NCBI GenBank assembly: GCA_044070495.1
Contig: JBIPSI010000012.1
Coordinates: 89,808 to 153,807 of the forward strand
Source of the DNA: Spirulina sp.
GTDB taxonomy: Bacteria > Cyanobacteriota > Cyanobacteriia > Phormidesmidales > Phormidesmidaceae
Direction: 5' to 3'
Length of the DNA stretch: 64,000 nt
Part shown: positions 8,198 to 29,616 of the stretch, piece by piece
Layout of the letters: each line of letters starts with the position of its first letter
Numbering within the stretch: position 1 is the stretch's first letter
The notes under the pieces: model-generated
What the model was told of the DNA's origin: nothing
What the model saw: the letters and a program-made list of their open reading frames with translations, nothing else
Databases searched by the model: none
Made by a program: the position numbers and the translations under genes

Positions 8198-8326
8198 TCG
8201 TCACCCTCGGAACAAGGAAATGGGAAGCCTGTATTTTGCGATTGGTAGGATAGGTTAACGCCAGCGCAATGAATCATTTTTTGTGATTCTTAGGCACAAT
8301 TTTCAGCATTGAACCAGGCATCAACA

Positions 8327-9037
8327 TTAATCAAGATTGGTGTATGTAAATTCAATGCTGCCATCGCGAGTGCTACAGATCGCCGCACGATATTGTCCAC
8401 CAATGCGAGTGACCCCACAAGTACCCTCTTTTTCAGCGGTTTCGCCGTTATACATCACCCCAACTACGCGATAGCTCAAACCATGACCCATCTCAAATTC
8501 AGAGGCCGTGGTGGTCACAAAGGAAAAGGGCTGATTGTCAAAGTAGTAGCTAAAGACAAGGGCACCTTCGGAGGGCATCATGGTCATGCGAAAGGCTTCA
8601 CATTGGAGAGGATTACTGCCTTGGGTATGGCATCGGGTGGGGCGGTTATCGTGATGAATAATTTGGAGATCGTCCGATGCCTGGGCAGTGGCAGAAGGGA
8701 CTGGTGGGGAAGTCACTGGCATAGAACTCGCACTGGGCGCAGGTGCCGGAGGAGCGGCCTGGGGGGCTTGATTTCCACCGCCAATTTGCTGAAGAAAAGA
8801 ATCAACGGTATTGATGGTTTCAATGACCGCACCTGCATCCCGAATAGCATCACCAATTTGGCGAAAAATATTGGCGACTAAAACAGAATCGGATTCAGTG
8901 ACAGATGCAGATTCAGTCCTTTGGGCGGCGGCAACACTAGGAGAGTGCCCCAAAAGGGAAACCAGCAGGATACCGGAGAGGCTGAGTCTATGGGCAAAGC
9001 TGGCACTTTTACGATAACGGGTCGTTAAGAATAGCAT
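8327..9037 (-). CDS. Hypothetical secreted protein (VAN-motif family)
   Basis: Signal peptide, VLVANIFRQIG segment, Pro-rich linker, C-terminal domain with 4 Cys; GAGGA RBS. Confidence 0.75.
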   Translation of the reverse strand: MLFLTTRYRKSASFAHRLSLSGILLVSLLGHSPSVAAAQRTESASVTESDSVLVANIFRQIGDAIRDAGAVIETINTVDSFLQQIGGGNQAPQAAPPAPAPSASSMPVTSPPVPSATAQASDDLQIIHHDNRPTRCHTQGSNPLQCEAFRMTMMPSEGALVFSYYFDNQPFSFVTTTASEFEMGHGLSYRVVGVMYNGETAEKEGTCGVTRIGGQYRAAICSTRDGSIEFTYTNLD

Positions 9038-9085
9038 TGTGTTGTCCTCGTTAATGATTTGAGTGTAATCATGCTCAAGGTGGTA

Positions 9086-9112
9086 TATTTCTCACCCGTT
9101 TGAGCCTATTCA
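9086..9112 (-). promoter_or_regulatory. Bipartite motif copy TGAATAGG-N12-AGAAATA
   Basis: Plus strand tatttct-cacccgtttgag-cctattca, about 50 nt upstream of the 9037 start. Confidence 0.7.
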
Positions 9113-9174
9113 ATATCAGGGCCTTGTTTGCATCAGGGCATTCATCAACTGCTGAATACTGCCTTGATGGATAT

Positions 9175-9609
9175 TCAGTGGACGGCTAGCCTCTTCTTCT
9201 TTGTCAAACTGTGGAGGGTATTCACCATAGTCAGGATTGAGGTCATAAAAGCAGCATCACGAGAGAGTATCCTATCCGCAGCCGCCATGTATCGCATAAA
9301 CCCGCTATCGGTCGCGAGATTGTAGCCGCGAGGTGACAAATTAGCCTTTTGTAAGGCTTCATAGCCATGGCGAACCATTACAGCGCAGTTGGATCGAACC
9401 ATCGCGACAATTCCCTGTCCGGACTGCATGGATGAGGGCAACGCCGCTTCGCAGGTGTCCGAAGCATTTTCCATGGCTTCCGATAGATCAGCGATGAAGT
9501 GACTGGGCGCATGGTGTGCTGAAACGTGTTTGGGAATCATCGCACCCAGCGTAAAGGTGCTGGAAATACAGGTAAGAACTATTAGCTTGGTTAGCTTTTT
9601 TATGGGCAT
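9175..9609 (-). CDS. Hypothetical secreted protein
   Basis: 144-aa ORF with signal-peptide-like N-terminus (...KHVSA). Confidence 0.6.
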   Translation of the reverse strand: MPIKKLTKLIVLTCISSTFTLGAMIPKHVSAHHAPSHFIADLSEAMENASDTCEAALPSSMQSGQGIVAMVRSNCAVMVRHGYEALQKANLSPRGYNLATDSGFMRYMAAADRILSRDAAFMTSILTMVNTLHSLTKKKRLAVH

Positions 9610-9666
9610 GAGAAATTCTGGAGATGGGCAGTATTAATCAAAACAAAAGGATCAATTCTTCCTTAA

Positions 9667-10206
9667 TCAATCCTGTCTACACGCTGCAATTCTGTGTCTT
9701 AGGCAAATGTCTACTTCGTCGCTACTGCTGGAATTATCAGAACTATCCCCATTCTCCAACAACCACAAAATTATTGCGGCGGCGGCCTCCGCCTGGGCAG
9801 CTTGCCGAGCCCGCTGCTCTGCCAGATAGGCCTGCTGCTGTTCAGGGGTGAGGCTTTCAAAGTACTGGCGCTGGCGTTCGGCTTCTAGCTGCTGCTGCTC
9901 AGCCGCCGCTTGACGGATGGCCTCTTGCTGTTGAATCTGCTGTTGTCGAACGGCCTCCCATTCTCGTCGCTCTTGCTCTCGCTGCTGCCGCTCAATTTCC
10001 CGCTGCACTTGTTGGGCACCACGGTTGATGTCTCGGAGAATATTGCCAAGGTTAGCGACCATGACAGGCTCAGACGAATGAGACGTGGTCTGCATGGTGG
10101 CCTGGGTGGCCGCACTGGCAGGGGGCGACCCCACCAATAGGGAGGCCAGCGCTAGGGCGGGCACCCCCAGGGCTAGGGTCAGGTAACGAGGGGATAGATT
10201 CTGCAT
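9667..10206 (-). CDS. Hypothetical secreted Gln-rich coiled-coil protein (VAN-motif family)
   Basis: Signal peptide, VMVANLGNILRDI, FESLTPEQQQAYL. Start placed at MQNL after a GAGGA RBS (ORF track start 10221). Confidence 0.75.
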   Translation of the reverse strand: MQNLSPRYLTLALGVPALALASLLVGSPPASAATQATMQTTSHSSEPVMVANLGNILRDINRGAQQVQREIERQQREQERREWEAVRQQQIQQQEAIRQAAAEQQQLEAERQRQYFESLTPEQQQAYLAEQRARQAAQAEAAAAIILWLLENGDSSDNSSSSDEVDICLRHRIAACRQD

Positions 10207-10249
10207 GGGACATATCCTCATAAATACGTTAGGGTCAATTATTTGCTTC

Positions 10250-10276
10250 TAGTTCTGGGTCAAATAAACTTATTCA
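10250..10276 (-). promoter_or_regulatory. Bipartite motif copy TGAATAAG-N12-AGAACTA
   Basis: Plus strand tagttct-gggtcaaataaa-cttattca. Confidence 0.65.
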
Positions 10277-10370
10277 ACCGAGTAGATGTCGAGGCGGCGA
10301 ATGTCAGAGATGCAGTCTGGCCCCAGATCATCTATACACAGACGGCATGCTGACTTCTGCTGAAGGGACG

Positions 10371-10397
10371 TATTGCTGGAGAACTTCAACCTATTCA
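10371..10397 (-). promoter_or_regulatory. Bipartite motif copy TGAATAGG-N12-AGCAATA
   Basis: Plus strand tattgct-ggagaacttcaa-cctattca. Confidence 0.6.
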
Positions 10398-10688
10398 AAG
10401 GGGCGATGTTGGCGTGGCCTATCAGTTTGGGCTTTGCACGGATCGCCAATCCCGAATGAACGTGTCCAATAGACCCGTCAGTAGTTCTCTTTCTGCCGAA
10501 GCGTAGCTAACTCTATAGCCTAGAGATCCATAGCCCCCACCCCTGCTGTAGATATCCGCTTCAATGGTGCGGCCATTGAGCTGAACGGTGTGAAACACGC
10601 TGCCCCTGACGCTAATGGCCCCACCGTCATCGGTACATTAGTTGCCCTGACAAAATAGGACATTAACTACAGTGATTAATCTTTAGTA

Positions 10689-11288
10689 CTAGCGTGAGCA
10701 AACAGGATCGATGTAGCAAACCCATTCTTCACGGCTCATGCCTCGACGGTGGCTGGGGCCAGTCGGTTCATGCTCAGCCCTGGAGGCTTCCACGGCGGCC
10801 CAGCCTTCAAACATGAAGTTCCACAGGCCATTGACCGTGTCCCGCTCTGCCTGCAAAAAAGCCTCTCGTTCTTCGGGGGTTAGGGTTTGCAGAAAGGCTT
10901 CTCGCTCTTGGCGACGGGCTTCTCGGCGGGCGGCATCTTCGGCTCGGCGACGCTGATAATCGTTCGCAAATTCACTACTGTTTTGCTGCCATTGTTCTAG
11001 CCGATCCTGGCGCATTTCCGTGCGTACCTGCGCTCCAGAATGGGGGGTCTGGGTTCTGGGCGTAGCGCGAGGGGCCTGTCCGCCCTGCGTGATACCTTCT
11101 AGGAGTTGCAGTCCATCGTGGACGGTTTGGAAAATATCAAACAGGTTGGCCACCCTAGCCGGATCGTCGGCAGTAGCGGTGCTTTCAGCAGGGGTGACGG
11201 CGGCGAGGCCGGGAACGGTGCCTAGCCAGGAAGCCAGGGCCAAGGTGGGTAGGGCAGCGCCTAGGCGAAACGTGTTGAACCAAGACAT
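10689..11288 (-). CDS. Hypothetical secreted coiled-coil protein (VAN-motif family)
   Basis: Signal peptide, RVANLFDIFQTV, FLQTLTPEEREAFL; same catatcctcata 5' leader as the 10206 gene. Confidence 0.75.
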   Translation of the reverse strand: MSWFNTFRLGAALPTLALASWLGTVPGLAAVTPAESTATADDPARVANLFDIFQTVHDGLQLLEGITQGGQAPRATPRTQTPHSGAQVRTEMRQDRLEQWQQNSSEFANDYQRRRAEDAARREARRQEREAFLQTLTPEEREAFLQAERDTVNGLWNFMFEGWAAVEASRAEHEPTGPSHRRGMSREEWVCYIDPVCSR

Positions 11289-11332
11289 AGACCATATCCT
11301 CATAACGGGGGTTGACTGCGGTCATGGGGATC

Positions 11333-11359
11333 TATTTCTGGGGCAGGCGAACCTATTCA
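11333..11359 (-). promoter_or_regulatory. Bipartite motif copy TGAATAGG-N12-AGAAATA
   Basis: Plus strand tatttct-ggggcaggcgaa-cctattca. Confidence 0.7.
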
Positions 11360-11367
11360 CGGATGGG

Positions 11368-11752
11368 CTAGATTTCTCCAATTTCTTGTATGGCTAGGGC
11401 TAGGAATTGGCCAGCGCGATCAATCTGGTCGGCAGCTTGTGCAACGGTTACAGCGTTTAACTGACCGTAATCACCCATCGTTCGCAGCGCTTGGGCCTCA
11501 ATCAAAAATTGATGAAATATCGTGGGCAGTTGTTGGGTTTTTGCAAATTCTCGTCCGAAGGCAGCAATCACCGCAGAGTGTTTAGAGAAGGAAAGCCCTT
11601 TACCATCTAAAAAAGCCTCCGCGATGTAGAACATTGCGTAGTAAGACCGCTAGACGGCATAGTCTGGATAGTTAGTTGTTGGTCAGGAGCAGTTTTGAGG
11701 CTTCTAGACTTTGTCTGGCCTTTTGCAGGAGTTCCTGTTGCTCTGAGGTCAT
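11368..11752 (-). pseudogene. HEPN-domain toxin pseudogene (MNT-HEPN pair)
   Basis: MTSEQQELLQKARQSLEASKLLLTNN*, a frameshift at a duplicated AACT, then YPDYAV*RSYYAMFY...SKHSAVIAAFGREF. Confidence 0.8.
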
Positions 11753-12069
11753 AATAAAATGCCTTCTTTACGGATGTTGCGAAGCAGGGCTGTATTGCGA
11801 GTTTGATACTGGATATCATCCATAAATAGGCAGGTAATCACGACATCATGATGAAGGGATAAATCGGCTACAACGTTACCCGTTCGCTGGATTTCTTCAC
11901 CTGGATTGATTGGGGACTTGAGCACCACTAAAACATCAATATCGGATTCGGGTGTCGCATTGCCGCGAGATTGGGAACCAAACAGGGTGAGATGGACTAA
12001 GCGATCCCTGTAGATGTCAGAGAGCGCTTGCTTAAGTTGAGCCAAGATAACAGCAAGGGCAGCATCCAT
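11749..12069 (-). CDS. Minimal nucleotidyltransferase (MNT) antitoxin
   Basis: LFGSQSRGNATPESDIDVLVV motif; ATGA overlap with the HEPN gene. Confidence 0.9.
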   Translation of the reverse strand: MDAALAVILAQLKQALSDIYRDRLVHLTLFGSQSRGNATPESDIDVLVVLKSPINPGEEIQRTGNVVADLSLHHDVVITCLFMDDIQYQTRNTALLRNIRKEGILL

Positions 12070-12144
12070 AGAAAAAGCCAGCAAGAAGTTCCTATTTCTA
12101 GGGTAGAAGAGGTTTTGCAAATCAGGTTTAAGGTATTTGTAATG

Positions 12145-12183
12145 CCTAGATGCCCGGTTTCTTGAAGCAACTGGGCATCTAGG
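12145..12183. repeat. Palindromic hairpin cctagatgcccggtt...aactgggcatctagg
   Basis: Visible inverted repeat directly after the DUF928-like gene stop. Confidence 0.7.
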
Positions 12184-12186
12184 ATG

Positions 12187-12990
12187 CTAGGAGGTGATTT
12201 CTTCGCTACAGATGGTGTCGATGAGGGTGGTTTGTAGGGTGGTGAGGGCCGGGGTAAGGTCGGTTTCGTCTACGGAAAAGAGGATGTGCAGGGCATCGGC
12301 GGGCATGTCCTGTTCTAGGAAGTAAGTGGCTTTGGCCTCGGCAATGGCGGCACTATTCGCCCCTTGGGCCACCAAGTCGGTGTGCAATTGGGCGAGGTCG
12401 ATGGTGATTTGGTCGCGATCTGGGCCGTTGGACATGACCCGAAAGGGCAGGATGTAGGTTGGTAGACCTGAGTTCTCGGCACGGGCGGAGGTTTGATAGA
12501 TGCGCCACTCGTAGCGGGTGCCCGGTTCTAGGGGGGTGGCCTCAAAGGGCGCTTTAACCAAAGCATCACCGACGGCATTGGGGGCAACGCTCCAGAGCAC
12601 AAGCGGGGGTGGGTCAATGCGGCGTCGCAGAAAGGGCTGAAATTCCTTCACCTCCATACGACTGACCCGCCCCTGGATCAGGAAAAGGGGTTGGAGATGC
12701 CAGAGGGTATCGTTTCTGCCGGGGTTGAGGATGCAGGTGCGGCTGGGTTCAGCTTCGCTACCCTCCGCTGTTTCGACCCAGCCATCGCCCCTGGAGGTGC
12801 CATCGCGGCCTCGGTTGCGGTCTTCGGGGTCGCGCCGGAAAAATTCGATGATGGTTGGGTCTGGGCTGAGCTGGGTCGGCTCTACCTGGGCGGCGGCGGA
12901 CGGCCCATTAACGAGTATCGAGGCTAACCCTAGGGTCACGGCACCTAGTCCCAGGCTCGCGGTAATCGTGATCGGTCTAATGGGTTGCAT
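12187..12990 (-). CDS. DUF928-like secreted protein
   Basis: Signal peptide, GRDGTSRG motif, LEPGTRYEW; overlaps the CHASE2 gene end, the usual CHASE2-DUF928 arrangement. Confidence 0.65.
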   Translation of the reverse strand: MQPIRPITITASLGLGAVTLGLASILVNGPSAAAQVEPTQLSPDPTIIEFFRRDPEDRNRGRDGTSRGDGWVETAEGSEAEPSRTCILNPGRNDTLWHLQPLFLIQGRVSRMEVKEFQPFLRRRIDPPPLVLWSVAPNAVGDALVKAPFEATPLEPGTRYEWRIYQTSARAENSGLPTYILPFRVMSNGPDRDQITIDLAQLHTDLVAQGANSAAIAEAKATYFLEQDMPADALHILFSVDETDLTPALTTLQTTLIDTICSEEITS

Positions 12991-15361
12991 CCGTATTTCC
13001 TCTTAGACTAGACAAACCATAACACCCCACCACCAGCGACGGCAGCAGCCAGGGCAGCAGCACCGCCCCGCTGATGTAAAGCTGTAACGACAGCAGTCCG
13101 TAGCCAGTGGTGGCCAATCCCAGGCCCAAGCTCACCTGCCAGCGGGGGCGAGGATGGACAGCCAGGTGCAGGCTCAGGGCTTTGCCCAGCCCAGCGGCAA
13201 CGAGAATCAGCCACAGGTCTGGGATGGGCACTACCAGGCGGTTGTTCAGTAAATGGTGAACCATGTAGGCGTGGGCTTCGCCGCCGGTGATGTGGGTGGC
13301 GGGTTGGTTGGCCCGTCGTCGCCAGTGGGCCAGGGCGGGGGGGATGGGCATATTGTCTTCGCCAGCGGCCACCAGTCCGGCGGCATGGTAGCCTCCGGGG
13401 GCCACAACCACCACGGCATTGGTGAGGTCGGGCAGATCGGCGGCATTTTCCCAAAGCTGCCAGGCGGGGATGGTGACAAAGACCCGATCCGGCGGCAGGG
13501 AAAAGTCCATCAAGGGCTGAAGCCACTGTTGCCAAATCCAATCTGAGGCATAGGTGATGGGGTGGAGGGTGGCGCGACGGGGCAGACCCAGATCGTGCTG
13601 TTGGCGGTAGGCGGCGACCTGGTCGGCCAGGGGTGGGCCATCCAAAGCAGGGCGCGGTGCGGCGGGGGCGGTTTGGCGCTGGTGCAAACGGTGGGCCACG
13701 GCCAGTTGATAGCTGAAGGGGTTTTGCAAATGGGGGGCTGAACGCTGGGGCAACATCCGCCACCAGGGCACCCGCACATTGCCCAGCAGCACACGATCCG
13801 GGGCAATGACATGGGGATGGGGCGTCAACCAAGCGCCCCCCTGACGAGCCGTAGCCACCACGGGCCAGATGCCTTGATTGATAGCGGATTCTAGGGCTTG
13901 GCGCAGTTCAGCATCGTGGGCGGGCTGGGCCAAATCGAGGATGTAGTCTAGGCCAATGACCGGGGCTTGGCGACGGCTGATTTCAGCCACAATCGTCGCC
14001 AGCATGGCCCGGTTGATGGGCGTATAGTCCGTCGCCCCCCAGCGAATAAAGCTCTCGCCGTCCACCTGCACCAGCACCACGGGCGGGTTAGCCGGGGGTA
14101 GCTGTCCGGTCAGGTCGCGATACACCGCCTGCGCCGCCACCCGCTGATCCATCAGCCAAGCCTGGGGTACCCAGTTGGCCTCGGCAGGAATTAGGCTAAT
14201 CGCCGCCAGGGCGCTAACGATCAGGGCTTCGCGGCGGGTGGGTTGCCAGCGTCGCCACCGACTACGCCAGCCCGTAGGTTCGAGTTGGTAGGGCACCGAG
14301 GCCGGATGGCGAAACAGCGACGGCACCAGGTAGGCCGAGGGATAGGTGAGGTTTTGCGCTAGCTTGAGGAATTGGCAGGCTCCGCGCAGGGCTGCCTGGA
14401 CGTTTTCGCCACGGGCAAGGCGCTGGAGCAACTGCACTAAAAAGGTTTGGGCCACCTGGTTATGGATCGGCTCCCGCATAACCGCCACCTGGCTGAGGCC
14501 GAGGTTAATCAACCCCTGGGCAATGTCTAGGCCGCTGCACGAATTGAACAGGGCAAACTGAAGCCCCCGCCGCTGGGCCTGTTGCAGAGCGGGGGTGAGA
14601 TCCTGAATCGACAGGGCCAAGTTGGGGGCAATGGCCACCTCGCCCCCCACCCAGGCCGCCTCGTTGCTGTGGCCCGCAAAAAAGAGAATGTCCCAGCCCT
14701 GGGGATCCGCAATAGCCTCGTAGATGCGACGCTTCAGGGCATTGGCCTCCTCCTCCGGCTGCCAGCCCACATAGTGAATGTCCATCACCACTGCCTGGGC
14801 GGCGAGGGCGTTGCGTTCCTCGGTGAAGTTCAGCCCGGTTTCGTCGCCCAAAATCGCCAAGACCCGCGTTTTGCCCCGCCGAAAGGAACGCCGATTCACC
14901 GCCTCGGCCCGAATGGTGGGCGGCGACCGCAAAATCTGCACTGGGGGGCCAAATTCCCAGGTTTCCCAGGGCAACCGAGCCAAGTCCAGCGGCGTGCAGG
15001 TGAGAAATAGCTCCAGCGGGGCGGCGGGATGCGCAGACTGAGCGGCCCTGACAATTTCCTGGCGCAGATCAAACAAATCCCCCTGCCGCAGCCAGCGATG
15101 GAACTCCGACAACAGCCGCGCCTCCGCCTGCCCCAGTTGGCTGTGCCAATCCACCGGAGCCGCCACCACCTGCCCCATCGCCCCGGCCCGCCCCCGCAGG
15201 GCTTGCTTGTAATAGCCCAAATAGGCCCGCCGCCAGGTGTCGTAGAGCGGCAACAGGGTGTCAGGAAAGGCCACCGTCGCCGTGATTCGCTGCCCCTCGC
15301 CCCAGGTGAGATCGAACAGGCCGCTCTGATCGATTTTGTGAACAGTAAGGCGGTAGGGCAT
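12977..15361 (-). CDS. CHAT (caspase-like) protease - TM - CHASE2 - 3TM membrane sensor
   Basis: LPWETWE, ILFFAGHS (His), LFNSCSG (Cys), VMREPIHNQVA; CHASE2 motifs VVLVQVD, VIGLDYILD, GGEAHAYMV. Start at MPYRLTVHKID. Confidence 0.88.
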   Translation of the reverse strand: MPYRLTVHKIDQSGLFDLTWGEGQRITATVAFPDTLLPLYDTWRRAYLGYYKQALRGRAGAMGQVVAAPVDWHSQLGQAEARLLSEFHRWLRQGDLFDLRQEIVRAAQSAHPAAPLELFLTCTPLDLARLPWETWEFGPPVQILRSPPTIRAEAVNRRSFRRGKTRVLAILGDETGLNFTEERNALAAQAVVMDIHYVGWQPEEEANALKRRIYEAIADPQGWDILFFAGHSNEAAWVGGEVAIAPNLALSIQDLTPALQQAQRRGLQFALFNSCSGLDIAQGLINLGLSQVAVMREPIHNQVAQTFLVQLLQRLARGENVQAALRGACQFLKLAQNLTYPSAYLVPSLFRHPASVPYQLEPTGWRSRWRRWQPTRREALIVSALAAISLIPAEANWVPQAWLMDQRVAAQAVYRDLTGQLPPANPPVVLVQVDGESFIRWGATDYTPINRAMLATIVAEISRRQAPVIGLDYILDLAQPAHDAELRQALESAINQGIWPVVATARQGGAWLTPHPHVIAPDRVLLGNVRVPWWRMLPQRSAPHLQNPFSYQLAVAHRLHQRQTAPAAPRPALDGPPLADQVAAYRQQHDLGLPRRATLHPITYASDWIWQQWLQPLMDFSLPPDRVFVTIPAWQLWENAADLPDLTNAVVVVAPGGYHAAGLVAAGEDNMPIPPALAHWRRRANQPATHITGGEAHAYMVHHLLNNRLVVPIPDLWLILVAAGLGKALSLHLAVHPRPRWQVSLGLGLATTGYGLLSLQLYISGAVLLPWLLPSLVVGCYGLSSLRGNTDATH

Positions 15362-15364
15362 GGG

Positions 15365-15416
15365 ATGGCGGAATGGCGGAATGGCGGGATGGCGGGATGG
15401 CGGGATGGCGGGATGG
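15365..15416. repeat. Octamer tandem repeat (atggcggr)x6
   Basis: Directly visible immediately upstream of the CHAT-CHASE2 start codon. Confidence 0.9.
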
Positions 15417-15499
15417 GGCAAAGCGTAGGGCATAACGCCAGGGTGAGACTAGCGCCAGGGCGAAGCAATGCACCATCTACTCACGAAGCAATGCCCTAT

Positions 15500-16723
15500 T
15501 TATTGAACCGGATCCTCTGGGCGAAAGACAAAGGGGGGCCAATGGAGGGTTGCGCCGTTGGGGAGTTGAATGGCCACGGTGAAGGCTTCTTCCCAGGTGC
15601 CGAAGACCTGGACATAGAGGTATTGGGCGGAACTTTGGGCATCGAGGGAACTATCCGCCAGCAGCCCTGTAGCATCGCTGACCTGGAGGCGTACCCCATC
15701 TGGTAGCGTATCGCCGGGGGCTGGCCCTAGGACTAGAAACAGGCACCATTCTGGCTCAGGATGCTCCCACACAGGCCAGATCAGGGCATAGAGCCGCAGG
15801 GGCAATCCGGTGGCCTGGAGATCGGTGTAGGCTCCCCTGGCGGCGGCGGGGATTTCCACTCCGGCGGGGGCCAGTTCGCGCAAAACGGCCTCTAGGGTAT
15901 CGGCGGGGCTTTGTGCGGCCATCAGGGCATGGGAGAGGGCAAGGGGCGGCAACAGGTTCCAGGTCAGGGTTTCGGTAACATGGGCGGTGACCGCATCAAG
16001 CCGATCCTGAAGCCATGGCCCCACATTGATCCATGGCCTGGTGGGCGAATCTGGGACGGATGCCATCGTCGGAGAGGTCGGGGGGGCTGGGGCGGTTTCC
16101 GGTGCCGCCGCCAAAAGCTGATCGGGGTTCAAACAGGTGAGGTAGAGCAAAATCTCCTCCGGTTCGGTATCAAACAGGGCGATGGGCAGGGTGTAGGTGT
16201 CGCCGTTATGGGTCAGGTGGCCGCTGGCTTGGTGGGACAACAGGCGATCCCGGCGTAGGCCACCCAGTATCGTCACCTGGTCGGCTTCTTCGCGCACTTC
16301 GACTAAGAGGTAGATGTGGGCGAAGGATGGTGGGGTGATGGGGTGGTGGGGTGGTGGGGTGGTGGGGTGGTGGGTGGTGGGGTGGTGGGTGGTTTGGGGG
16401 ATGGTGACTTGGTCGTCGCTGAGGCTGCCTTGCACGACTAAACACAGGCGAAAACCGTTGACTTCGGCCTGGATGCCTGTGCCTGGGGGCTGGGTGGGGT
16501 CGTAGGTGAGGGTTAGTCCGGTGCTGCCCTGCCGCAGCCAGTGATCGACCCCCCGTAGCGCCATAGCCCGCAAAAAGGTGAGCCACTGGTGGGCTTCGGG
16601 TTCGGATTGGCCGATTTGCACCGCCCAATCTACCTCTGCCGGGGAGAGGTGAACCGTGGCGGGGTGAAGGCGATCAAACTCGACATCGGGGGCGAGGTCT
16701 GGGAATTCGGGGGAAGCACTCAT
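15500..16723 (-). CDS. DUF1822 family protein
   Basis: FRLCLVVQGS, AHIYLLVEVREE...VTILG, INVGPWLQ, LPDGVRLQVSDATG, YLYVQVFGTWEEAFTV. Confidence 0.8.
   Translation of the reverse strand: MSASPEFPDLAPDVEFDRLHPATVHLSPAEVDWAVQIGQSEPEAHQWLTFLRAMALRGVDHWLRQGSTGLTLTYDPTQPPGTGIQAEVNGFRLCLVVQGSLSDDQVTIPQTTHHPTTHHPTTPPPHHPITPPSFAHIYLLVEVREEADQVTILGGLRRDRLLSHQASGHLTHNGDTYTLPIALFDTEPEEILLYLTCLNPDQLLAAAPETAPAPPTSPTMASVPDSPTRPWINVGPWLQDRLDAVTAHVTETLTWNLLPPLALSHALMAAQSPADTLEAVLRELAPAGVEIPAAARGAYTDLQATGLPLRLYALIWPVWEHPEPEWCLFLVLGPAPGDTLPDGVRLQVSDATGLLADSSLDAQSSAQYLYVQVFGTWEEAFTVAIQLPNGATLHWPPFVFRPEDPVQ
16325..16402. repeat. 7/8-mer ggggtggt-type tandem repeats inside the DUF1822 CDS
   Basis: Encodes TTHHPTTHHPTTPPPHHPITPP. 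Confidence 0.8.
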
Positions 16724-16778
16724 AGGGCATAGACTCGCGATGGGGTGGGTGAGGTAGGAATACATTAGAGTTGAGGGC

Positions 16779-18134
16779 TTAGGGTTGAGGGGGTAAAAAG
16801 GCGTGGATTTCGGTACAGAGGTGCTGGCTAAAGCGGCTTTTTACCGGGCGGGGTTTGGGCGCTTGGGCCTCGGCGGCGGCTTCGGCAATTAGGTCATCCA
16901 CCGTTTCTGCTAACAGGGTTTCTAAGGTTTGATCGATGGCCTGGAGCCGATCCGCCGAGACGTAATTCAGGGCTTCCTGGCGCAGGGTGGCGTGCAGTTG
17001 GGGAATCAGCCGATGGCGCACCTCCGCCCGCAGCCGTTTCAGGTTCAGCAGCCGCGTCACCTGCACCTGGGAACTCAGGCCAATGCGCGGAGCTACGGCC
17101 CCCATGGCCAACCCTTCACACTGGCGCAGATAGAGACCCTGCACGTAGGCGCTGTCCTGGGGTGGGGTGCGCTGGCGAAGCTGGCGCATTTGGTCGGCGA
17201 TCACCTGGCGTAGGGTGCCCCCCAAATGGTGATTCAGGCTGGCCCGATAGCGATCCAAAAAATCCATCTGTTCATCCGGGACTGGGGCCGCTTGGCGGGT
17301 TTGGGCGATGCTTTCGAGTTCAGAGTCGTCCTGGGGTTGGTAAAGCTGGGGATGTCCACCCCGTCCGTGGATGCGGTATTGCCGGAGTTGGGTGGCCAAC
17401 TGCCGCAGATTGGCCTTCACCTGTTTGGGGGAGCGGGTGGAATCCATGGCCTGCAATTGGTCGGGGCTGGGTTCTGGACAGCGTCCGGCCTTACCCTGTT
17501 GTCGCTGGCGCAGCCGATCCTGGCGATAGACCCGATGGTAGCTCTCCAGCAGGGCCACCGCCTGATCGACCTCGTAGGTGCTGCACAGATGATAGTCGCG
17601 TAAAATGCGCTGCACCTGGGCGGGGGTGGTGTCGTTCAAAATCGCCCAATCGCTGGCCTGGTATAGTCCCTTTTCTAGCAGCCATTGGTTGAGGTCGGGA
17701 TGGGTTTTGGTGAGGCGATGGCTCCAGGCACTGAGACGCCCCTTGGTGGGGTCGTAGCTCTCCAAAATCCGCAGGGTGAAGGGCTGATGGCGGGGGCGAG
17801 GGCGTCCATCATCCTCTAAAACCAGGGGCAGCAGGTCGGCGGTGGTAAAGCCGTAGCGTTCTCCATGGCGCTGGGCCAACCCCATACAGCAACTCCGAAT
17901 CTGGTGGGTCACCCAACCGCGCAAGCTCAACTGGGCCAGATCGGCCTCCGCCTGCCCCCTCTGCCAACGGTCAAACAGCGCCCGCTGAAGCTGGGCTTCC
18001 TGCTCCTCCAGGTTGTCTAACCAAGGGGCGAAGGCCTCCTGAAGCCAGGGTTTCACCGTCGCCAGTTCCAGGGTTTGAAGCTGGCCTCCACTGGTGAGCC
18101 GCACCAGGTGCCAATATCGTGAAGCGTTATTCAT
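16779..18134 (-). CDS. Sigma-70-like (region 2 / region 4-like) regulatory protein
   Basis: ILESYDPTKGRLSAW resembles sigma region 2; LYLRQCEGLAMGAVAPRIGLSSQVQVTRLL resembles a region 4 HTH; sits upstream of DUF1822. Confidence 0.55.
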   Translation of the reverse strand: MNNASRYWHLVRLTSGGQLQTLELATVKPWLQEAFAPWLDNLEEQEAQLQRALFDRWQRGQAEADLAQLSLRGWVTHQIRSCCMGLAQRHGERYGFTTADLLPLVLEDDGRPRPRHQPFTLRILESYDPTKGRLSAWSHRLTKTHPDLNQWLLEKGLYQASDWAILNDTTPAQVQRILRDYHLCSTYEVDQAVALLESYHRVYRQDRLRQRQQGKAGRCPEPSPDQLQAMDSTRSPKQVKANLRQLATQLRQYRIHGRGGHPQLYQPQDDSELESIAQTRQAAPVPDEQMDFLDRYRASLNHHLGGTLRQVIADQMRQLRQRTPPQDSAYVQGLYLRQCEGLAMGAVAPRIGLSSQVQVTRLLNLKRLRAEVRHRLIPQLHATLRQEALNYVSADRLQAIDQTLETLLAETVDDLIAEAAAEAQAPKPRPVKSRFSQHLCTEIHAFLPPQP

Positions 18135-18246
18135 AGCAGGGCAAACATTCTGCCTATCACAGTAAGTTGAACGGTCTCTCAACATCCCTCTACCCGTGGG
18201 AGAGGGATTTAGGGTAAGGGCTAGTTCGGCTAAAGCTGTTCTACCG

Positions 18247-18273
18247 TATTTCTGAGCAGGGAAGACCTATTCA
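18247..18273 (-). promoter_or_regulatory. Bipartite motif copy TGAATAGG-N12-AGAAATA upstream of the sigma-like operon
   Basis: Plus strand tatttct-gagcagggaaga-cctattca. Confidence 0.7.
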
Positions 18274-18442
18274 CCGGAAGGAGAAAGGTTTAGCGTTCTG
18301 GGGTGCAGTGGCTATGATAGACAGCAGTTGTTGGCGCGCCCTTAGCCCCCGCCATGGAACATCGGGCGTAGCCCTGGCCCACGGTGCCCCCTAGCCCATC
18401 GTTCTAGGCAAGGCCATTCCCTGAGCAATCCTTGGTTGAACC

Positions 18443-18574
18443 ATGAATGCCGTCGAAATCGAAGAAGCCGTTTCCCAACTGGCCGAAGCCCCCTTTGACC
18501 CCGAAGCGTTTCCCTTTGCCTTCCTGGAAGCCTTTGGCAATAAGGCCACCATGATCAAGAAGCTCAGGAGATAG
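18443..18574 (+). pseudogene. N-terminal fragment of a type IIG/IIL (YeeA/MmeI-like) RM methyltransferase
   Basis: MNAVEIEEAVSQLAEAPFDPEAFPFAFLEAFGNKATMIKKLRR*. Confidence 0.7.
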
Positions 18575-18662
18575 TATTCGTATCAACGATCAGTGGCGCA
18601 TTTGTTTTTTGTGGACAGATGAAAATAATGCAGATCAAGTTGAAATTGTAGATTATCACTGA
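18573..18662 (+). pseudogene. higB: C-terminal fragment of HigB toxin
   Basis: SIRINDQWRICFLWTDENNADQVEIVDYH*. Confidence 0.85.
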
Positions 18663-18670
18663 GAACGGCT

Positions 18671-18980
18671 ATGGATAACGCACGTCTGTCAAATATTCAC
18701 CCCGGCGAAATTCTACGGCTAGAATTTCTAGAGCCGCTTTTCTAAGGCCGCTTGATATTACACCCTACCAATTAAGTAAAGATATTGGTGTAGCCCAGAC
18801 GCGAATTAGCGAAATTTCATCTGAAAAGCTCTAAAAAGCGCAGCATTACAGCCGATACATCCCTGCGACCATCAAAATATTTTAGCAATAGCGCTCAGTT
18901 TTGGATGAACCTACAGTCTCAGTACGATTTACGCCAAGCCTAGGAAGAAAACAAAGAAATTTACAAACATATTCCTGAAC
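18671..18980 (+). pseudogene. higA: HigA antitoxin pseudogene
   Basis: IHPGEILRLEFLEPL...ITPYQLSKDIGVAQTRISEI...KRSITADTSLR...QFWMNLQSQYDL, with frameshifts and stops. Confidence 0.85.
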
Positions 18981-19049
18981 AACAACAACTGTGTATAAAT
19001 CGAACAGGGTTTCGCTGCCGTCTCCTAAGGTAACGATGTCGAAGGCACT

Positions 19050-19328
19050 TCAAGATAAGTTGGGCTCTTCCGGGTTCAGGGTGATGGCGGCTTGTTCTCC
19101 TGGGTCAAGGGTATTGAGGGTTGGATCAACTTCGGGAACAGATTGCACGGTAAGCCAGGAAGGAGGTTTGGCAATCCATTGTTGGAGAATGAGGGGAGCA
19201 TCAGGGTCGATCATTTCATCTCGAACAACATCGGGAATGATGATTTTCTGAAATAATTGGGGCAGGAGATGAACCTGGCCAATCAGCAGTAGATAGTTGA
19301 TGGGCGAGGTATCGGAAACGACAATCAT
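19050..19328 (-). pseudogene. DUF3368 (PIN-like) toxin, C-terminally truncated
   Basis: MIVVSDTSPINYL...LDPGEQAAITL; the expected LIDE...G tail is missing. Confidence 0.75.
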
Positions 19329-19603
19329 GAAGCACTGTGAACTTGCTTTTCGCGGAGTTGACGGAGAGTGCCACGGTCTTGCTCTAAATCTGCCTCGTCG
19401 TAATGTAGTTCAACATTATGCTGCTTTAAGAAATTATCTACGGCCCAACGAGAGGGTAAGCCTAGTATGTGACCCACTTCGGCACTGGTAATTTTTTCTG
19501 CTTGGTAGGCTTGTATTGTAAGGGCTTCTAGAATTTCGCGGGAAAGGTTGTCTGGGTTAAAGTATTGAGCCAGTGAATCAGGCAGATCGAGAATGATTTG
19601 CAT
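19325..19603 (-). CDS. UPF0175 family antitoxin
   Basis: LTIQAYQAEKITSAEVGHILGLPSRW...YDEADLEQD; ATGA overlap with DUF3368. Confidence 0.85.
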   Translation of the reverse strand: MQIILDLPDSLAQYFNPDNLSREILEALTIQAYQAEKITSAEVGHILGLPSRWAVDNFLKQHNVELHYDEADLEQDRGTLRQLREKQVHSAS

Positions 19604-19682
19604 AGGGGAACCCCGTATATTCATACATCTTCAAGCAAGTGAGTGACCAGAACTGCTAAGGGTTTTCAGGCAAAATTAATCA

Positions 19683-19919
19683 TCAATTCTCGATAGTCTC
19701 TAGCAATTTTGCTTGAACTTCTTTGGACAATTCCACAATCACAAACCGTTTTTGTGGATAAAGATAGTCTTCGCCAGATTCATCAATGACTCGTAGACAT
19801 TCGACTTCCGCTGCTTTTGTATCTGGTAAGACTCGATAAATCTTCCATGCCTCCAGATCACTATCTTCTTCAGCGGCAATACAGATGGCAAATTTGATGT
19901 TTGAATCTATGGTATACAT
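19683..19919 (-). CDS. Conserved small hypothetical protein (IDESGEDYLYP)
   Basis: 78-aa acidic ORF, 5 nt downstream of the 20164 gene. Confidence 0.8.
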   Translation of the reverse strand: MYTIDSNIKFAICIAAEEDSDLEAWKIYRVLPDTKAAEVECLRVIDESGEDYLYPQKRFVIVELSKEVQAKLLETIEN

Positions 19920-19924
19920 CGTTT

Positions 19925-20164
19925 TTAGTCCAGGATACGCTTAACTTTCATTTTGCGCCGACCTACCCCGTGAGCTTCATACCAGTGCAGTTCGGCTTGG
20001 CAAACCTCTCCATTGGAAAACTGGACTAAGCCAGTACCTTTCAATTTGCGCCAGCGACGACCTCCAAATTCATCCTTAAGTCTTCGCAGTTCTCGAATTG
20101 ACAGATTGACGGCGATAACTTCAATGTCTGTCAGTTTACTAATTAGCTCAAAGTCACTCTCCAT
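19925..20164 (-). CDS. Conserved small basic hypothetical protein (WRKLKG...AELHWYEAHG)
   Basis: 79-aa ORF forming a bicistron with the next gene. Confidence 0.8.
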   Translation of the reverse strand: MESDFELISKLTDIEVIAVNLSIRELRRLKDEFGGRRWRKLKGTGLVQFSNGEVCQAELHWYEAHGVGRRKMKVKRILD

Positions 20165-20323
20165 GATTCAAGGTCAACATTCTGTGGGTAATCTTGAAGC
20201 ATCATAATCATTCTTCATGTTGTTAGTTCTAATTTGGTAATCAATTAGGCGTTGTCGGCAGCGGGTTAAGGATCTGTGAGCAACTCAGAGTAAACTGAGA
20301 CACCTGAAATTTTTGTAGATCTG

Positions 20324-21319
20324 CTAATGCTCCAACCAAATGAACGGCTCGTTATTGTCCTTCAATAGATTTTGCCAGTGATTAAACTTCTCACGCGGAG
20401 TTATCTTTAGGATCTCGTAATGAACATTGACATTGTTGCTTGTATTTTTACATCCGTAGCGGTAAAGATCTAGAATGACATCAAGTTCACCTTCAGTAAA
20501 CTTATGTTCTTTGCTTAAAAGATACTGTTCGTACAATTCATCCAAGATGCCTGGACTGCAAAGTTGGCTTGAAAAATTCTCTAATGTTTGAAGCCTCAGC
20601 ATCGGATAGTCAAGACTCTTGTCTTGCAAATAGCGTTTTGTTAAATATGCTTTAAGTAAATTGGCATAAGCACTTTGCAAGCATTGTGTTAAATCAAGAG
20701 AAACATTAATTTCATCTCTGTCAAGATGCTTTCCAATCAGCATCTCTATTAGAGACTCAATACTATTAAATAATTTTGAGATTTCGTTGTCTAGATACTC
20801 ACTCCATCCTAAATCTTCCATCTGATGTATGAGCGTTATACAATCTTTTATATGACACCTAACGTCTGCGACTAGCTTGCTTAACTCATGCTTGATGAGT
20901 TCTGAAATTTTGGTGTCTAAAGCGCGAATCTGATTGCAAATCTCATTTAGTTTTTTGTCAATTTTATTTAACTGATATACGACAACTGCAAAGCCTACTA
21001 CAGCCACTCCTAGCGTCGTGCCAGAAATAGCTAGGTTGAGAGTACTCAAGGCTTTAATTTCTTGGGTTAGACTGATTATTTTATTAAGTTTTGAAGTATC
21101 GCCAACCATTTTAAGTCCAGCACCTGCGACGGCAAAGGCTGGATGTACGGCACCAAGAGCACCTAATGTCTGTGGGCCAGCGGCTTTCGCCATTTCAAGA
21201 TGAGCAACTATCGCTTTAGTTCCTGCATCTCTCACCACTCCACTTTCAATTATAATTTTTCCTGCTTTTAAGGCAGATTCTAAATGCTGAGGTAGTTGAA
21301 GCAAGTATTGATATGTCAT
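20324..21319 (-). CDS. Hypothetical protein with hydrophobic helix and coiled coil
   Basis: 331-aa AT-rich ORF; ATGA overlap with the upstream gene. Confidence 0.8.
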   Translation of the reverse strand: MTYQYLLQLPQHLESALKAGKIIIESGVVRDAGTKAIVAHLEMAKAAGPQTLGALGAVHPAFAVAGAGLKMVGDTSKLNKIISLTQEIKALSTLNLAISGTTLGVAVVGFAVVVYQLNKIDKKLNEICNQIRALDTKISELIKHELSKLVADVRCHIKDCITLIHQMEDLGWSEYLDNEISKLFNSIESLIEMLIGKHLDRDEINVSLDLTQCLQSAYANLLKAYLTKRYLQDKSLDYPMLRLQTLENFSSQLCSPGILDELYEQYLLSKEHKFTEGELDVILDLYRYGCKNTSNNVNVHYEILKITPREKFNHWQNLLKDNNEPFIWLEH

Positions 21320-22143
21320 GTTAGTTGACCCTTTCTTCCTCTTTCTTTGAGTTCATTTTGATAACGAAAAGTGTAAATAGAAAGAATTGCCTGAATAAAG
21401 CGCAGTTTCTCTTGTTCACTGCCGAGCTTAATTAAGGATAGAGCAATACTTAATCCTCCAGTGCCAATGGCAATCCCCCATCCGATAGGCCCTGCTAATG
21501 CGCCAAGAACAGCTACTTGGAGTGCTTTCTGTCCCATTACATTAATCAAAAGCCATGCCATAAATCCTCGTGTAAGCTGCTGAAGCATTACGCCAGCAAC
21601 AAGTGGAACGGCAATGGGGACAGCGCCACCAATACCACCAAAAAGCAAATAATAGACTGAATTATTAATTTCTTGCTCTGTGAATTTCCGATTATACCTT
21701 CCTTCTAGATCCTTTTTTACCGTATCAACAAATTTATCTTTATCCTGATCGCTAGATTCTTTCCAAAGAAGTAAAAATATATCTCTAGCAACCGTAACCA
21801 TTAAATCAGAGTCATTCAACTTATCTTTAGAATCTAGTGCTTTTAGATCTTTGACTACCTGATCTCTCTGAGATTGATTCTCAGGCTTGACTGTTTTCTT
21901 ACCTAAAACTTCTAGAACGTAATCTCTCCACAGAACAAGAACTCTATAGGACTCTGAAGGTAGTTTCTGCTTTGCTGAAGCATAATGCTCTCTGAGTTTA
22001 GTTTTTATTCTTGCATTAAGATGGCTCTTCTGATTAATTTCATTGAATGATTGATACTCTTTAGCCTTGTTAACACCTAGAGTTTCTGCTACTGATTTAA
22101 GTTGATCTAGCTGTAAATCATTTATTGTCGCAAATAAACTCAT
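21316..22143 (-). CDS. Hypothetical membrane-associated protein (YaaW-like Gly-rich helices)
   Basis: 275-aa AT-rich ORF, LGALAGPIGWGIAIGTGG; GAGG RBS. Confidence 0.75.
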   Translation of the reverse strand: MSLFATINDLQLDQLKSVAETLGVNKAKEYQSFNEINQKSHLNARIKTKLREHYASAKQKLPSESYRVLVLWRDYVLEVLGKKTVKPENQSQRDQVVKDLKALDSKDKLNDSDLMVTVARDIFLLLWKESSDQDKDKFVDTVKKDLEGRYNRKFTEQEINNSVYYLLFGGIGGAVPIAVPLVAGVMLQQLTRGFMAWLLINVMGQKALQVAVLGALAGPIGWGIAIGTGGLSIALSLIKLGSEQEKLRFIQAILSIYTFRYQNELKERGRKGQLT

Positions 22144-27041: not shown

Positions 27042-27423
27042 GTTCTATGCCAATGAGAACTTAACGGCAGAATTAGTCGAGGCACTACGAAAACTGGGTC
27101 ACGATGTTTTGACCTCCTACGAAGCGGGGACTGCCAATCAACGCATTCCCGATAATCAGGTTTTAGCGAATGCTACCGCTGACGAACGGGCGGTGCTCAC
27201 CTTCAATCGCGATGATTTTTTAGCCTTGCATCGTAGCGGAATCAATCACAGCGGCATTGTGGTGTGCAAGGACAACAGTGATGAGCAAAAGCTCAGCCAC
27301 GCTCTGAACGACTACCTCGCAACGCAGGACACCCTAAACGACCGATTACTAAGGGTTATGCAACGGAATCAGCCTGGACTCAGTCAGCCCGTGTTCATCG
27401 TGCGTGAGTATGGCCGCTGTTAA
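27031..27423 (+). CDS. DUF5615 PIN-like toxin
   Basis: RFYANENL, GHDVLT, IPDNQVL, LTFNRDDF, HSGI. Confidence 0.9.
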   Translation: MRFRFYANENLTAELVEALRKLGHDVLTSYEAGTANQRIPDNQVLANATADERAVLTFNRDDFLALHRSGINHSGIVVCKDNSDEQKLSHALNDYLATQDTLNDRLLRVMQRNQPGLSQPVFIVREYGRC

Positions 27424-27451
27424 AGTCGGGCATCGAAGGGATTTAGATCGA

Positions 27452-27694
27452 TCAATAAATCTCGGGTTCGGGCTGGGGGACGGCGAAGTTAGAGGGGTCG
27501 TTGAGGTAGCGCAGGGCGTCTTCCTCTAGGCGATGGATAAGGTAAGGCTCTAGGGCATCGGCGTGGCGCAGGGCGGCCAAGTAGCCTTCTAAGAAGAGGC
27601 GGAGGTCGCTGGTGCGATAGCCTCGGTGCCAATGGTCTACAAAGGCATCGGTTATCCGCTGATAGTAACGAACCGCTTTGGCATCCTGAAGCAT
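27452..27694 (-). CDS. Conserved cyanobacterial protein (DUF6761-like)
   Basis: MLQDAKAVRYYQRITDA...IHRLEEDALRYLNDPSNF. Confidence 0.8.
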   Translation of the reverse strand: MLQDAKAVRYYQRITDAFVDHWHRGYRTSDLRLFLEGYLAALRHADALEPYLIHRLEEDALRYLNDPSNFAVPQPEPEIY

Positions 27695-27981
27695 AGGTCT
27701 TTTGGTAATGGCTCCACTACGATGGGGGATCTAGGCGTCCCCCTATTGAATAAAGTTCCCACTTTTGAGAGAACGACACCCTACCCCTTAATGTAGCTTC
27801 ATAGTCGAGTGAGGGAAGTTCGTGTTAACAACTTCTTATTGTTTACATTTACCATTCTAGCGGATATCCCCATGGCCCTGGGGGCGGTGCGGTGCGGTGT
27901 TGGGCAGGGCCATTTCTGGGGCTGGCGCAACGCGCTAAGATAGGAAGCTGCGTCCTAGTATTACCTCCAGAGCGACACCCT

Positions 27982-29343: not shown

Positions 29344-29391
29344 AGCAGCCTCAAGCACTCTGAACCGCCAACCTCAATTAGGAGATTTTCG

Positions 29392-29616
29392 ATGCAGGTA
29401 CACCTTGATCTGCCAGACTCCATCAACGTTGATGCGACCTATGTCCAAGAGGCCCTGATGGCGGTGCTGTACTCTACGGGCAAGGTATCTGCCCACCAAG
29501 CCTGTCAAATTCTTAATCGAACTCGTCGGTCTTTTGAGGAAATGCCGCCTCAGTATGGTGTCTCGGTGCTAGTCGATAGCGACGATAACCTAGCTATTGA
29601 ATTGGATGTTGAATGA
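29392..29616 (+). CDS. UPF0175 family antitoxin
   Basis: LYSTGKVSAHQACQIL; ATGA overlap with the next gene. Confidence 0.75.
   Translation: MQVHLDLPDSINVDATYVQEALMAVLYSTGKVSAHQACQILNRTRRSFEEMPPQYGVSVLVDSDDNLAIELDVE

Follow-up and report, generated by a model that had tools for sequence, protein, structure and literature searches.

A Rigidly Spaced Bipartite Promoter-Like Motif and Its Probable Reader, a Putative HetZ-Type Sigma Factor, in Spirulina sp.

Introduction

The 64-kb stretch of cyanobacterial DNA analysed here (positions 89808-153807 of contig C12 in an assembly of Spirulina sp. comprising 5.31 Mb in 74 contigs, and referred to throughout as the window) contains five copies of a bipartite promoter-like motif, one of them ahead of a gene for a 451-aa sigma-like protein (16779-18134). 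The five sites are very probably promoters recognised by this protein, which, in the same joint judgement, is a highly divergent extracytoplasmic function (ECF) sigma factor of the HetZ type, with N-terminal, middle, and C-terminal insertions. One of the sites would drive an operon consisting of the sigma-like gene, a DUF1822 gene, a CHAT-CHASE2 protease gene, and the gene for a 267-aa protein; as the sigma-like protein would thus have its site before its own operon, positive autoregulation would follow. The other four sites would drive three genes for small secreted proteins with a V-A-N motif, and one further site would drive an unlinked TPR-CHAT gene on contig C11. DUF1822, on the model of HetF, PatU3, and sigma-HetZ in Anabaena PCC 7120, would probably keep the sigma factor inactive until the membrane-bound CHAT-CHASE2 protease is triggered, and a paralogous sigma/DUF1822 pair encoded on contig C35 would read a sister motif that differs at -14/-13. 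We infer from the computational evidence reviewed below that the sigma-like protein reads the motif on RNA polymerase, that transcription begins at the predicted starts, and that the system is gated by proteolysis.

Copies of the Motif in the Window

A pattern search of the window for TGAATARG-N12-AGMAMTA returned five exact matches, all on the minus strand and all intergenic, each pointing at the next gene. The five copies that had been described in a first-pass annotation of this DNA were thereby all recovered with their common orientation, as was the fixed 12-nt spacer, the sequence of which varies among the copies. The sites are as follows.

18247-18273, minus strand: promoter-like site of the sigma-like operon, TGAATAGG-N12-AGAAATA, with a C-A step at motif positions 36-37; predicted start 18237
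11333-11359, minus strand: promoter-like site, TGAATAGG-N12-AGAAATA; predicted start 11323
10371-10397, minus strand: distal promoter-like site of a tandem pair, TGAATAGG-N12-AGCAATA; predicted start 10361
10250-10276, minus strand: proximal promoter-like site of that pair, TGAATAAG-N12-AGAACTA; predicted start 10240
9086-9112, minus strand: promoter-like site, TGAATAGG-N12-AGAAATA; predicted start 9076

The chance expectation for the strict pattern is 0.01 matches, and none of 100 dinucleotide-preserving shuffles of the window reached five, which excludes the random, background-level occurrence that the annotation had left to be checked. The sites are oriented, non-palindromic, and situated 20-110 nt upstream of same-strand genes. 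Three copies finish 44-49 nt short of the probable ATG codons of the signal-peptide genes (11288, 10206, and 9037), in agreement with the approximate 45-50 nt given previously, and GAGGA is found 9 nt 5' of the ATG at both 11288 and 10206. The copy at 10371-10397 is indeed a second site of the 10206 gene, 121 nt upstream of the proximal one, and the copy that had been placed before the sigma-like gene ends 113 nt ahead of its ATG at 18134. Between the tandem sites (10280-10370) there is only a 6-codon open reading frame (ORF), and the distal site may yield a longer leader or a small RNA. Naive ORF calls that place starts 2-8 nt past the motif probably rely on wrong start codons, and these were not used as evidence.

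Architecture, Spacing, and Probable Start Signature

The features of the motif were followed in the remainder of the genome, with a weight matrix built from 17 sites and a threshold of 18 bits, and in related loci drawn from a one-genome-per-species scan, in which relatives of the sigma-like protein are encoded by 405 stretches. Of these loci, the best 80 were used; nearly all are cyanobacterial, and strains of Nodosilinea and Leptolyngbya figure among the matches. The extended motif can be written as TGAATARG-N12-AGnnATA-N8-Y-R. Read as a promoter, it consists of TGAATA at about -36 to -31, a 17-nt spacer with a conserved AG at -16/-15, and nATA at -13 to -10, followed by 8 nt and then a pyrimidine-purine (Y-R) step at -1/+1. 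The AG at motif positions 21-22 is invariant, and A27 is present in 126 of 126 sites in the related loci. When the two boxes were scored separately and offsets of -8 to +8 were allowed, the canonical offset was taken by 20 of 22 box pairs in the genome and by 88 of 89 in the related loci (1.26 Mb).

The Y-R step occupies motif positions 36-37, 10 nt past the last A of the ATA box, and lies outside the weight matrix. It is present at all five window sites, at 22 of the 25 genome sites, and at 117 of the 126 sites in related loci; once sites at least 50% alike downstream were removed, it was retained in 41 of 48, against a background of 0.21 (binomial p = 2e-21). Bacterial start sites usually have a pyrimidine at -1 followed by a purine at +1, which is why the starts listed above were predicted at these positions, and on the sequence evidence the step likely marks the transcription start.

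Distribution in the Genome

In the whole genome, the strict pattern has six matches, the five in the window and one on contig C9. The latter (C9:81290) falls at the start of a 158-aa ORF without a family match, scores less than 12 bits by the matrix, and is probably due to chance. The matrix scan found 25 sites of at least 18 bits, distributed over the window (5), contig C35 (15), contig C73 (3), contig C74 (1), and contig C11 (1), and eight of these were absent from the seed set of the matrix. The C11 site precedes a 1193-aa TPR-CHAT gene that is unlinked to the window locus, so that the proposed regulon is not only the local one of the first-pass annotation.

A second cluster of the motif, found by starting from every TGAATARG in the genome, occupies the 51-kb contig C35 and the short contigs C73 and C74. 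On contig C35, a DUF1822 gene comes after the gene for a paralogue of the window's sigma-like protein (58% identical); the contig also has another CHAT-CHASE2 gene and a long series of genes for TPR-CHAT, subtilase, caspase, and trypsin-like proteins. The earlier reading has to be corrected in that this sister system relies on a variant form of the motif.

Several TPR-CHAT paralogues on C35 (L003-L005) and C73 (L006) have a near-identical stretch of about 35 nt (ATATATAGTGATGTCACCCCCAGAYGGAGCATTGCC) after the motif, and in this conserved leader the start codon lies 37 nt past the ATA box. At C35:27090 (position 7090 of L004), a 28.7-bit site with a Y-R step is situated just past the end of a TPR-CHAT gene. 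It faces into a convergent subtilase gene from the 3' side (27337-29502, minus strand), and either antisense RNA or the transcript of a small gene missing from the annotation would arise from it.

Conservation and Co-occurrence in Relatives

Sites of at least 18 bits are frequent in the related loci, where 126 were found in 42 of the 80, as against a single one outside the islands in the whole source genome. Ninety-six of them are on the same strand as the sigma-like gene and 30 on the opposite strand, and the latter precede genes of that strand, including divergent pairs such as that of locus L017 (1803, minus strand, and 1926, plus strand). The sigma-like gene itself has a site of at least 12 bits within the 400 nt upstream in 52 of the 80 loci, drawn from both major clades, and has none by the same measure in the other 28. 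The first box is TGAATA in close relatives and TGCATA in most of the distant clade (35-40% identity), the spacing and the AG...TA box being unchanged in the latter. Motif position 3 (A or C) changes state only four times on a tree of 81 proteins, one of the changes lying between the close sisters L028 and L029. Tandem sites also precede the orthologue of the 10206 gene in L009 and L011, where they are 60 nt apart. Among the 66 ORFs downstream of sites, leaving aside the sigma gene, Pfam identified 10 TPR-CHAT, 20 TPR-only, five caspase C14, two subtilase S8, one RTX, and one CHASE2 protein; 27 were without a family, several of which are orthologues of the small secreted proteins of the window.

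The association was also followed in 151 cyanobacterial genomes that are at least 90% complete, using the strict pattern with the Y-R step included and the reversed pattern as control. The sigma-like family is encoded in 45 of these genomes, and a second, C16-type family, in which a long sigma factor is paired with DUF1822 and which is named here after contig C16 of the source genome, in 40. Related genomes are not independent, and for this reason the following are given as counts, with no statistical test.

Genomes with the sigma-like family: 45 genomes, 102 matches, control 15
Genomes with the sigma-like family, source genome left out: 44 genomes, 89 matches, control 15
Genomes without the sigma-like family: 106 genomes, 28 matches, control 31
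Genomes with the sigma-like family only, no C16-type sigma: 27 genomes, 46 matches, control 8
Genomes with the C16-type sigma only: 22 genomes, 9 matches, control 11

The excess of the motif tracks the sigma-like family and not the C16-type family. A separate observation concerns the cyanobacterial genome G027, which has three copies of the sigma-like gene and 15 strict matches of the TGCATAAG type spread over 14 contigs, a regulon far more dispersed than that of the source genome.

The Sigma-Like Protein

16779-18134, minus strand: sigma-like protein, type A, 451 aa, with an N-terminal extension, a sigma-2-like part, a middle insertion, a sigma-4-like part, and a C-terminal extension

The start Met at 18134 matches the starts of the homologues. 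In the predicted structure, sigma-2-like and sigma-4-like folds occur in the correct order, the former at residues ~46-156 and the latter, a helix-turn-helix part, at ~290-378. They are separated by a middle insertion (~157-285), which, together with residues 1-45 and ~380-451, makes up the extra structured parts around them.

The protein has no sigma match in Pfam or NCBIfam (Sigma70_r2/r4 and TIGR02937 included). Of 30 family members, none matches Sigma70_r2 and one matches Sigma70_r4_2 (E 0.012). An hhalign comparison with the nine canonical sigma factors of the source genome gave 25 columns at 3.5% probability, and the family profile searched against PDB sequences returned nothing meaningful (best E 0.17, an endoglucanase). 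The family alignment (A1) nevertheless aligns with a 403-aa protein encoded at C16:90147-91358 at 96% probability (E 4.6e-9) over 302 columns, spanning the invariant SDWAILND stretch and the helix-turn-helix of region 4, and this protein reaches 90.2 bits on TIGR02937 (sigma-70 ECF; cut-off 42.9), its regions 2 and 4 being separated by an insertion. The nearest named clusters in the ESM Atlas are cyanobacterial sigma-70-family proteins of ~400 aa, and none of the homologue matches carried the source name 'HetZ'. The sigma-like identity originally proposed is thus supported by the predicted folds and by the profile homology to an ECF sigma factor, except that the protein is not a standard ECF factor and instead resembles HetZ in its large insertions. 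Membership of the HetZ type is proposed by analogy, on the grounds of architecture, partner, protease, and promoter geometry.

The proposal that the motif is a promoter associated with the sigma-like gene, which would be autoregulated, agrees in sum with every computational line followed here, namely the orientation and placement of the sites, the spacing, the Y-R step, the upstream sites in related loci, the co-occurrence, the folds, and the ECF homology.

Alternative Explanations

The motif could be a real promoter that is read otherwise, either by an ordinary sigma factor at the ATA box aided by a separate activator on TGAATAAG, or with the sigma-like protein serving as a conventional DNA-binding activator in place of a sigma subunit, and this is unlikely. 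None of the sites showed a promoter of the sigma-70 consensus type; in the region 8200-18500, none was found against 4.2 expected when at least 9 of 12 matches to the TTGACA/TATAAT hexamers and a spacer of 16-18 nt were required. The invariant AG at positions 21-22 and a spacing rigid to one base suit a single protein reading both boxes, and the excess of the motif follows the sigma-like family instead of the other sigma/DUF1822 family. The family is, moreover, profile-homologous to an ECF sigma factor, and the geometry of the motif is that of the promoters of sigma-HetZ, reported to be a sigma subunit by cryo-EM (PMC13342950).

Recognition by the sigma-like protein also has to be weighed against the possibility that the copies are leftovers of duplicated upstream regions, or a passively spread repeat without regulatory function. 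The extended stretch that several C35 and C73 TPR-CHAT paralogues share downstream of the motif would fit such an origin, as would the paralogy of the three VAN-motif genes, but the boxes have been kept while spacers and flanks differ, and the downstream genes are mutually unrelated (sigma-like, small secreted, TPR-CHAT, S8, C14, and RTX). The motif also persists at sigma-like genes down to 35% identity, and the Y-R step is kept where downstream sequences are dissimilar, which leaves this explanation very improbable. Least probable of all are recombination or cassette-boundary sites and an RNA element: the window copies do sit between genes of one orientation, as cassette junctions would, but the sites in relatives occur on both strands and are always aimed at the next gene (including the divergent pair of L017), no integrase or transposase was noticed among the Pfam-annotated ORFs, and a hairpin cannot form because the motif is without dyad symmetry and its spacer is unconserved.

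Two Sub-motifs

Sites for a comparison of sub-motifs were chosen with a matrix blind to positions 7 and 23-25. The dinucleotide AA at positions 23-24 was present in 16 of 18 distinct sites of window-type loci (L008-L013) vs 1 of 21 in seven C35-type loci, a difference with a Fisher p of 6e-8 that is inflated by relatedness. In the source genome, it is found at four of five window sites and at the single C11 site, as compared with one of 16 sites on C35, none of three on C73, and not at the one site on C74. Because of this difference from the C35-type sites, the window copies and the C11 site look like one regulon, belonging to the sigma factor that the window itself encodes and separate from the regulon of the C35 island.

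It is possible, with a likelihood somewhat short of even, that the genome holds two orthogonal pairs of HetZ-type sigma factor and promoter, which share one architecture and are separated at -14/-13 (positions 23-24) and in part at position 7. Under this proposal, the type-A sigma factor would read AG-AA-(A/C)TA before its own operon, the VAN-motif genes, and the TPR-CHAT gene on C11, and the type-B factor of C35 would read AG-(not AA)-ATA before the TPR-CHAT, subtilase, and caspase genes that make up a 45-kb battery. Were this so, the HetZ-like family, which is present in about a third of the sampled cyanobacterial genomes, would have a promoter code that can be read, and sequence would allow the regulon of every receptor-protease/sigma module to be predicted.

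The Probable Sigma Operon and the Secreted-Protein Genes

The other genes of the window locus are as follows.

15500-16765, minus strand: DUF1822 protein, predicted partner (PF08852, E 3e-23), after a 13-nt gap behind the sigma-like gene
12977-15433, minus strand: CHAT (caspase-fold) protease with a CHASE2 membrane sensor (CHAT E 1e-6, CHASE2 E 1.7e-13)
12187-12990, minus strand: 267-aa protein, the start of its gene overlapping the end of the CHAT-CHASE2 gene
10689-11303, minus strand: small signal-peptide protein with a VANLFD motif; probable start 11288; C-terminal GMSxxEWxCYIDPxC common to orthologues
9667-10221, minus strand: small signal-peptide protein with a VAN motif; probable start 10206
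9175-9609, minus strand: 144-aa ORF, 57 nt past the previous gene and with no motif of its own
8327-9037, minus strand: signal-peptide protein with a VAN motif, 236 aa

The sigma-like, DUF1822, CHAT-CHASE2, and 267-aa genes are separated by 13 nt and 66 nt and joined by a 14-nt overlap, and the short gaps and the overlap suggest a single operon behind the 18273 site. In 68 of the 80 related loci, the sigma gene is directly followed by an ORF of at least 330 aa. With 0.00 as the best of three controls, a model of the complex between the sigma-like protein and DUF1822 scored 0.69 (runs 0.73, 0.69, and 0.68), a mark that 116 of 157 solved complexes attain, as do 2 of 215 mismatched pairs. The runs share at least 30% of contacts, with a partner pLDDT of at least 67, and the confident DUF1822 contacts fall on residues 153-258 of the sigma-like protein, which correspond to the conserved middle insertion. 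The model supports binding of DUF1822, which is predicted to take place at the middle domain of the sigma-like protein.

The 267-aa protein is 30% identical (E 3e-23) to the product of C35:35236-36120, the gene for which follows the second CHAT-CHASE2 gene. DUF928, which had been considered as its family, was not reproduced, there being no Pfam match even at E 0.1.

The three VAN-motif genes are paralogues, and their products start with a signal-peptide-like stretch followed by the V-A-N motif. Common to the orthologues of the secreted proteins are the signal peptide, VANLFD, a middle rich in Q/E/R, SLTPEQQQAY, and GMSxxEWxCYIDPxCGR at the C-terminus. The 144-aa ORF is probably co-transcribed with the preceding gene.

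Relation to Known Systems

Sigma-HetZ of Anabaena PCC 7120 has been described as an ECF-type sigma factor with large insertions on the basis of ChIP-seq, reconstituted transcription, and cryo-EM (PNAS 2026, PMC13342950). According to the same account, HetZ was first recognised as a sigma factor by structure comparison of an AlphaFold model, sequence models having missed it; its insertions lie before sigma-2, between sigma-2 and sigma-4, and after sigma-4; and its promoters, of the DIF1 type, consist of TCCGGA (-35 to -30), N16-17, TGNA (-13 to -10), N7-9, and T. PatU3 is regarded there as the likely anti-sigma factor of HetZ, with cross-links on i1, i3, and sigma-4 (PMC13342950), and HetF, a caspase-fold protease, is reported to degrade PatU3 (PNAS 2022, PMC9457339).

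The window system resembles this one in several respects. Both have an insertion-bearing ECF-type sigma factor that sequence models fail to recognise, an adjacent partner gene, and a caspase-fold protease (of the CHAT or HetF type), the sigma factor and the partner of the window being predicted ones. The three extra regions of the window protein are predicted by the model in places around sigma-2 and sigma-4 similar to those of the HetZ insertions. The hexamer-N17-tetramer-N8-Y arrangement of the motif equals the published geometry and has its A at -10 if the purine of the predicted starts is +1. The boxes, however, are TGAATA and nATA here, as against TCCGGA and TGNA, and only the window motif has the AG at -16/-15 and a GYT after the -35 box. 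The window regulon would be composed of secreted VAN-motif proteins, TPR-CHAT proteins, and proteases, and not of heterocyst genes, and its protease is a membrane receptor (CHAT-CHASE2) encoded within the operon. The window model confines a beta hairpin to its N-terminal part, as against the hairpin that HetZ employs within insertion 2, and the predicted DUF1822 interface is on the middle domain, unlike the PatU3 cross-links.

The gene trio itself, made up of a caspase/CHAT protein with a variable C-terminal sensor (e.g., CHASE2), DUF1822, and a sigma factor, has been catalogued computationally (eLife 2021, PMC8195603), and it was proposed by Kaur, Iyer, Burroughs, and Aravind that the sigma factor of the trio regulates a multiplicity of genes (PMC8195603). 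The window locus has the same trio as these EACC2-caspase/ECF sigma/DUF1822 neighbourhoods, with CHAT-CHASE2, DUF1822, and the sigma-like gene; the passages of PMC8195603 that bear on them give no promoter motif, regulon, or start sites. A further parallel is provided by the protease-gated sigma systems of type III CRISPR, CalpL-CalpT-CalpS, PCc-sigma, and CASP-sigma (bioRxiv 10.1101/2023.06.23.546230), in which a protease likewise controls the availability of a dedicated sigma factor. These differ from the window system in having unrelated proteases, sigma factors, and input signal (cyclic oligoadenylates), and no DUF1822.

The promoters of ECF sigma factors in general have a conserved -35 element (e.g., GGAAC or TGAAAC), 16-17 nt, and a short -10 element (e.g., CGTC or CGTA). 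Autoregulated ECF promoters are like the present motif in being bipartite and rigidly spaced, with a site before the sigma operon itself and a small dedicated regulon. The differences reside in the box sequences and in the window sigma factor, which, at 451 aa, has three extra regions and no Sigma70_r2/r4 hidden Markov model match.

Both the gene trio and sigma-HetZ are already in print, and the motif was not found there; nor was any publication giving this motif found in a literature search conducted by protein and domain families, not by the letters of the motif. The tree in Fig. S4 of PMC13342950 covers sigma-HetZ, sigma-HetZ', and homologs and may already include the window family. It was not until 2026 that sigma-HetZ was established as a sigma factor of unique build, and then for heterocyst development alone. 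The window family would represent a much wider set of HetZ relatives, mostly annotated as 'hypothetical', that are wired to membrane caspase-like receptors. A concrete promoter, predicted starts, and a target set comprising the sigma operon, small secreted proteins, TPR-CHAT proteins, and proteases make the function of these modules testable, and the motif lets annotators recognise their regulons from sequence.

The C16 Pair and Regions Flanking the Sigma Operon

A third sigma/DUF1822 pair of the source genome is encoded at C16:90147-92460 (L097, L100), where the gene for the 403-aa sigma factor overlaps the start of the DUF1822 gene, the best-scoring DUF1822 in the genome (242 bits). This pair may be the hetZ/patU orthologue of a non-heterocystous filamentous cyanobacterium. 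The source names of the C16 sigma factor are only 'sigma-70 family RNA polymerase sigma factor', and a comparison with PDB returned ordinary sigma factors only and no HetZ chain. The pattern TCCGGA-N16-17-TGNA has 23 matches in the genome, none of them at the C16 locus; by eye, TCCGGA-N15-TGGA can be seen ~320 nt upstream of the C16 sigma gene.

Two regions of the window adjoin the sigma operon. Between it and the secreted-protein genes, 11749-12120 (minus strand) encodes a nucleotidyltransferase (NTP_transf_2, E 1e-10) and is followed by a HEPN gene that is split by an in-frame stop into ORFs 11607-11819 and 11368-11634, and the interval 11368-12120 is probably a decayed MNT/HEPN toxin-antitoxin pair. 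On the other side, the interval 18300-22000 has a GC content of 0.39-0.47, as compared with about 0.55-0.6 elsewhere, and contains short, apparently truncated ORFs, with a PIN-like fragment discernible by eye at 19050-19328. Its appearance is that of a degraded mobile or toxin-antitoxin region next to the sigma operon.

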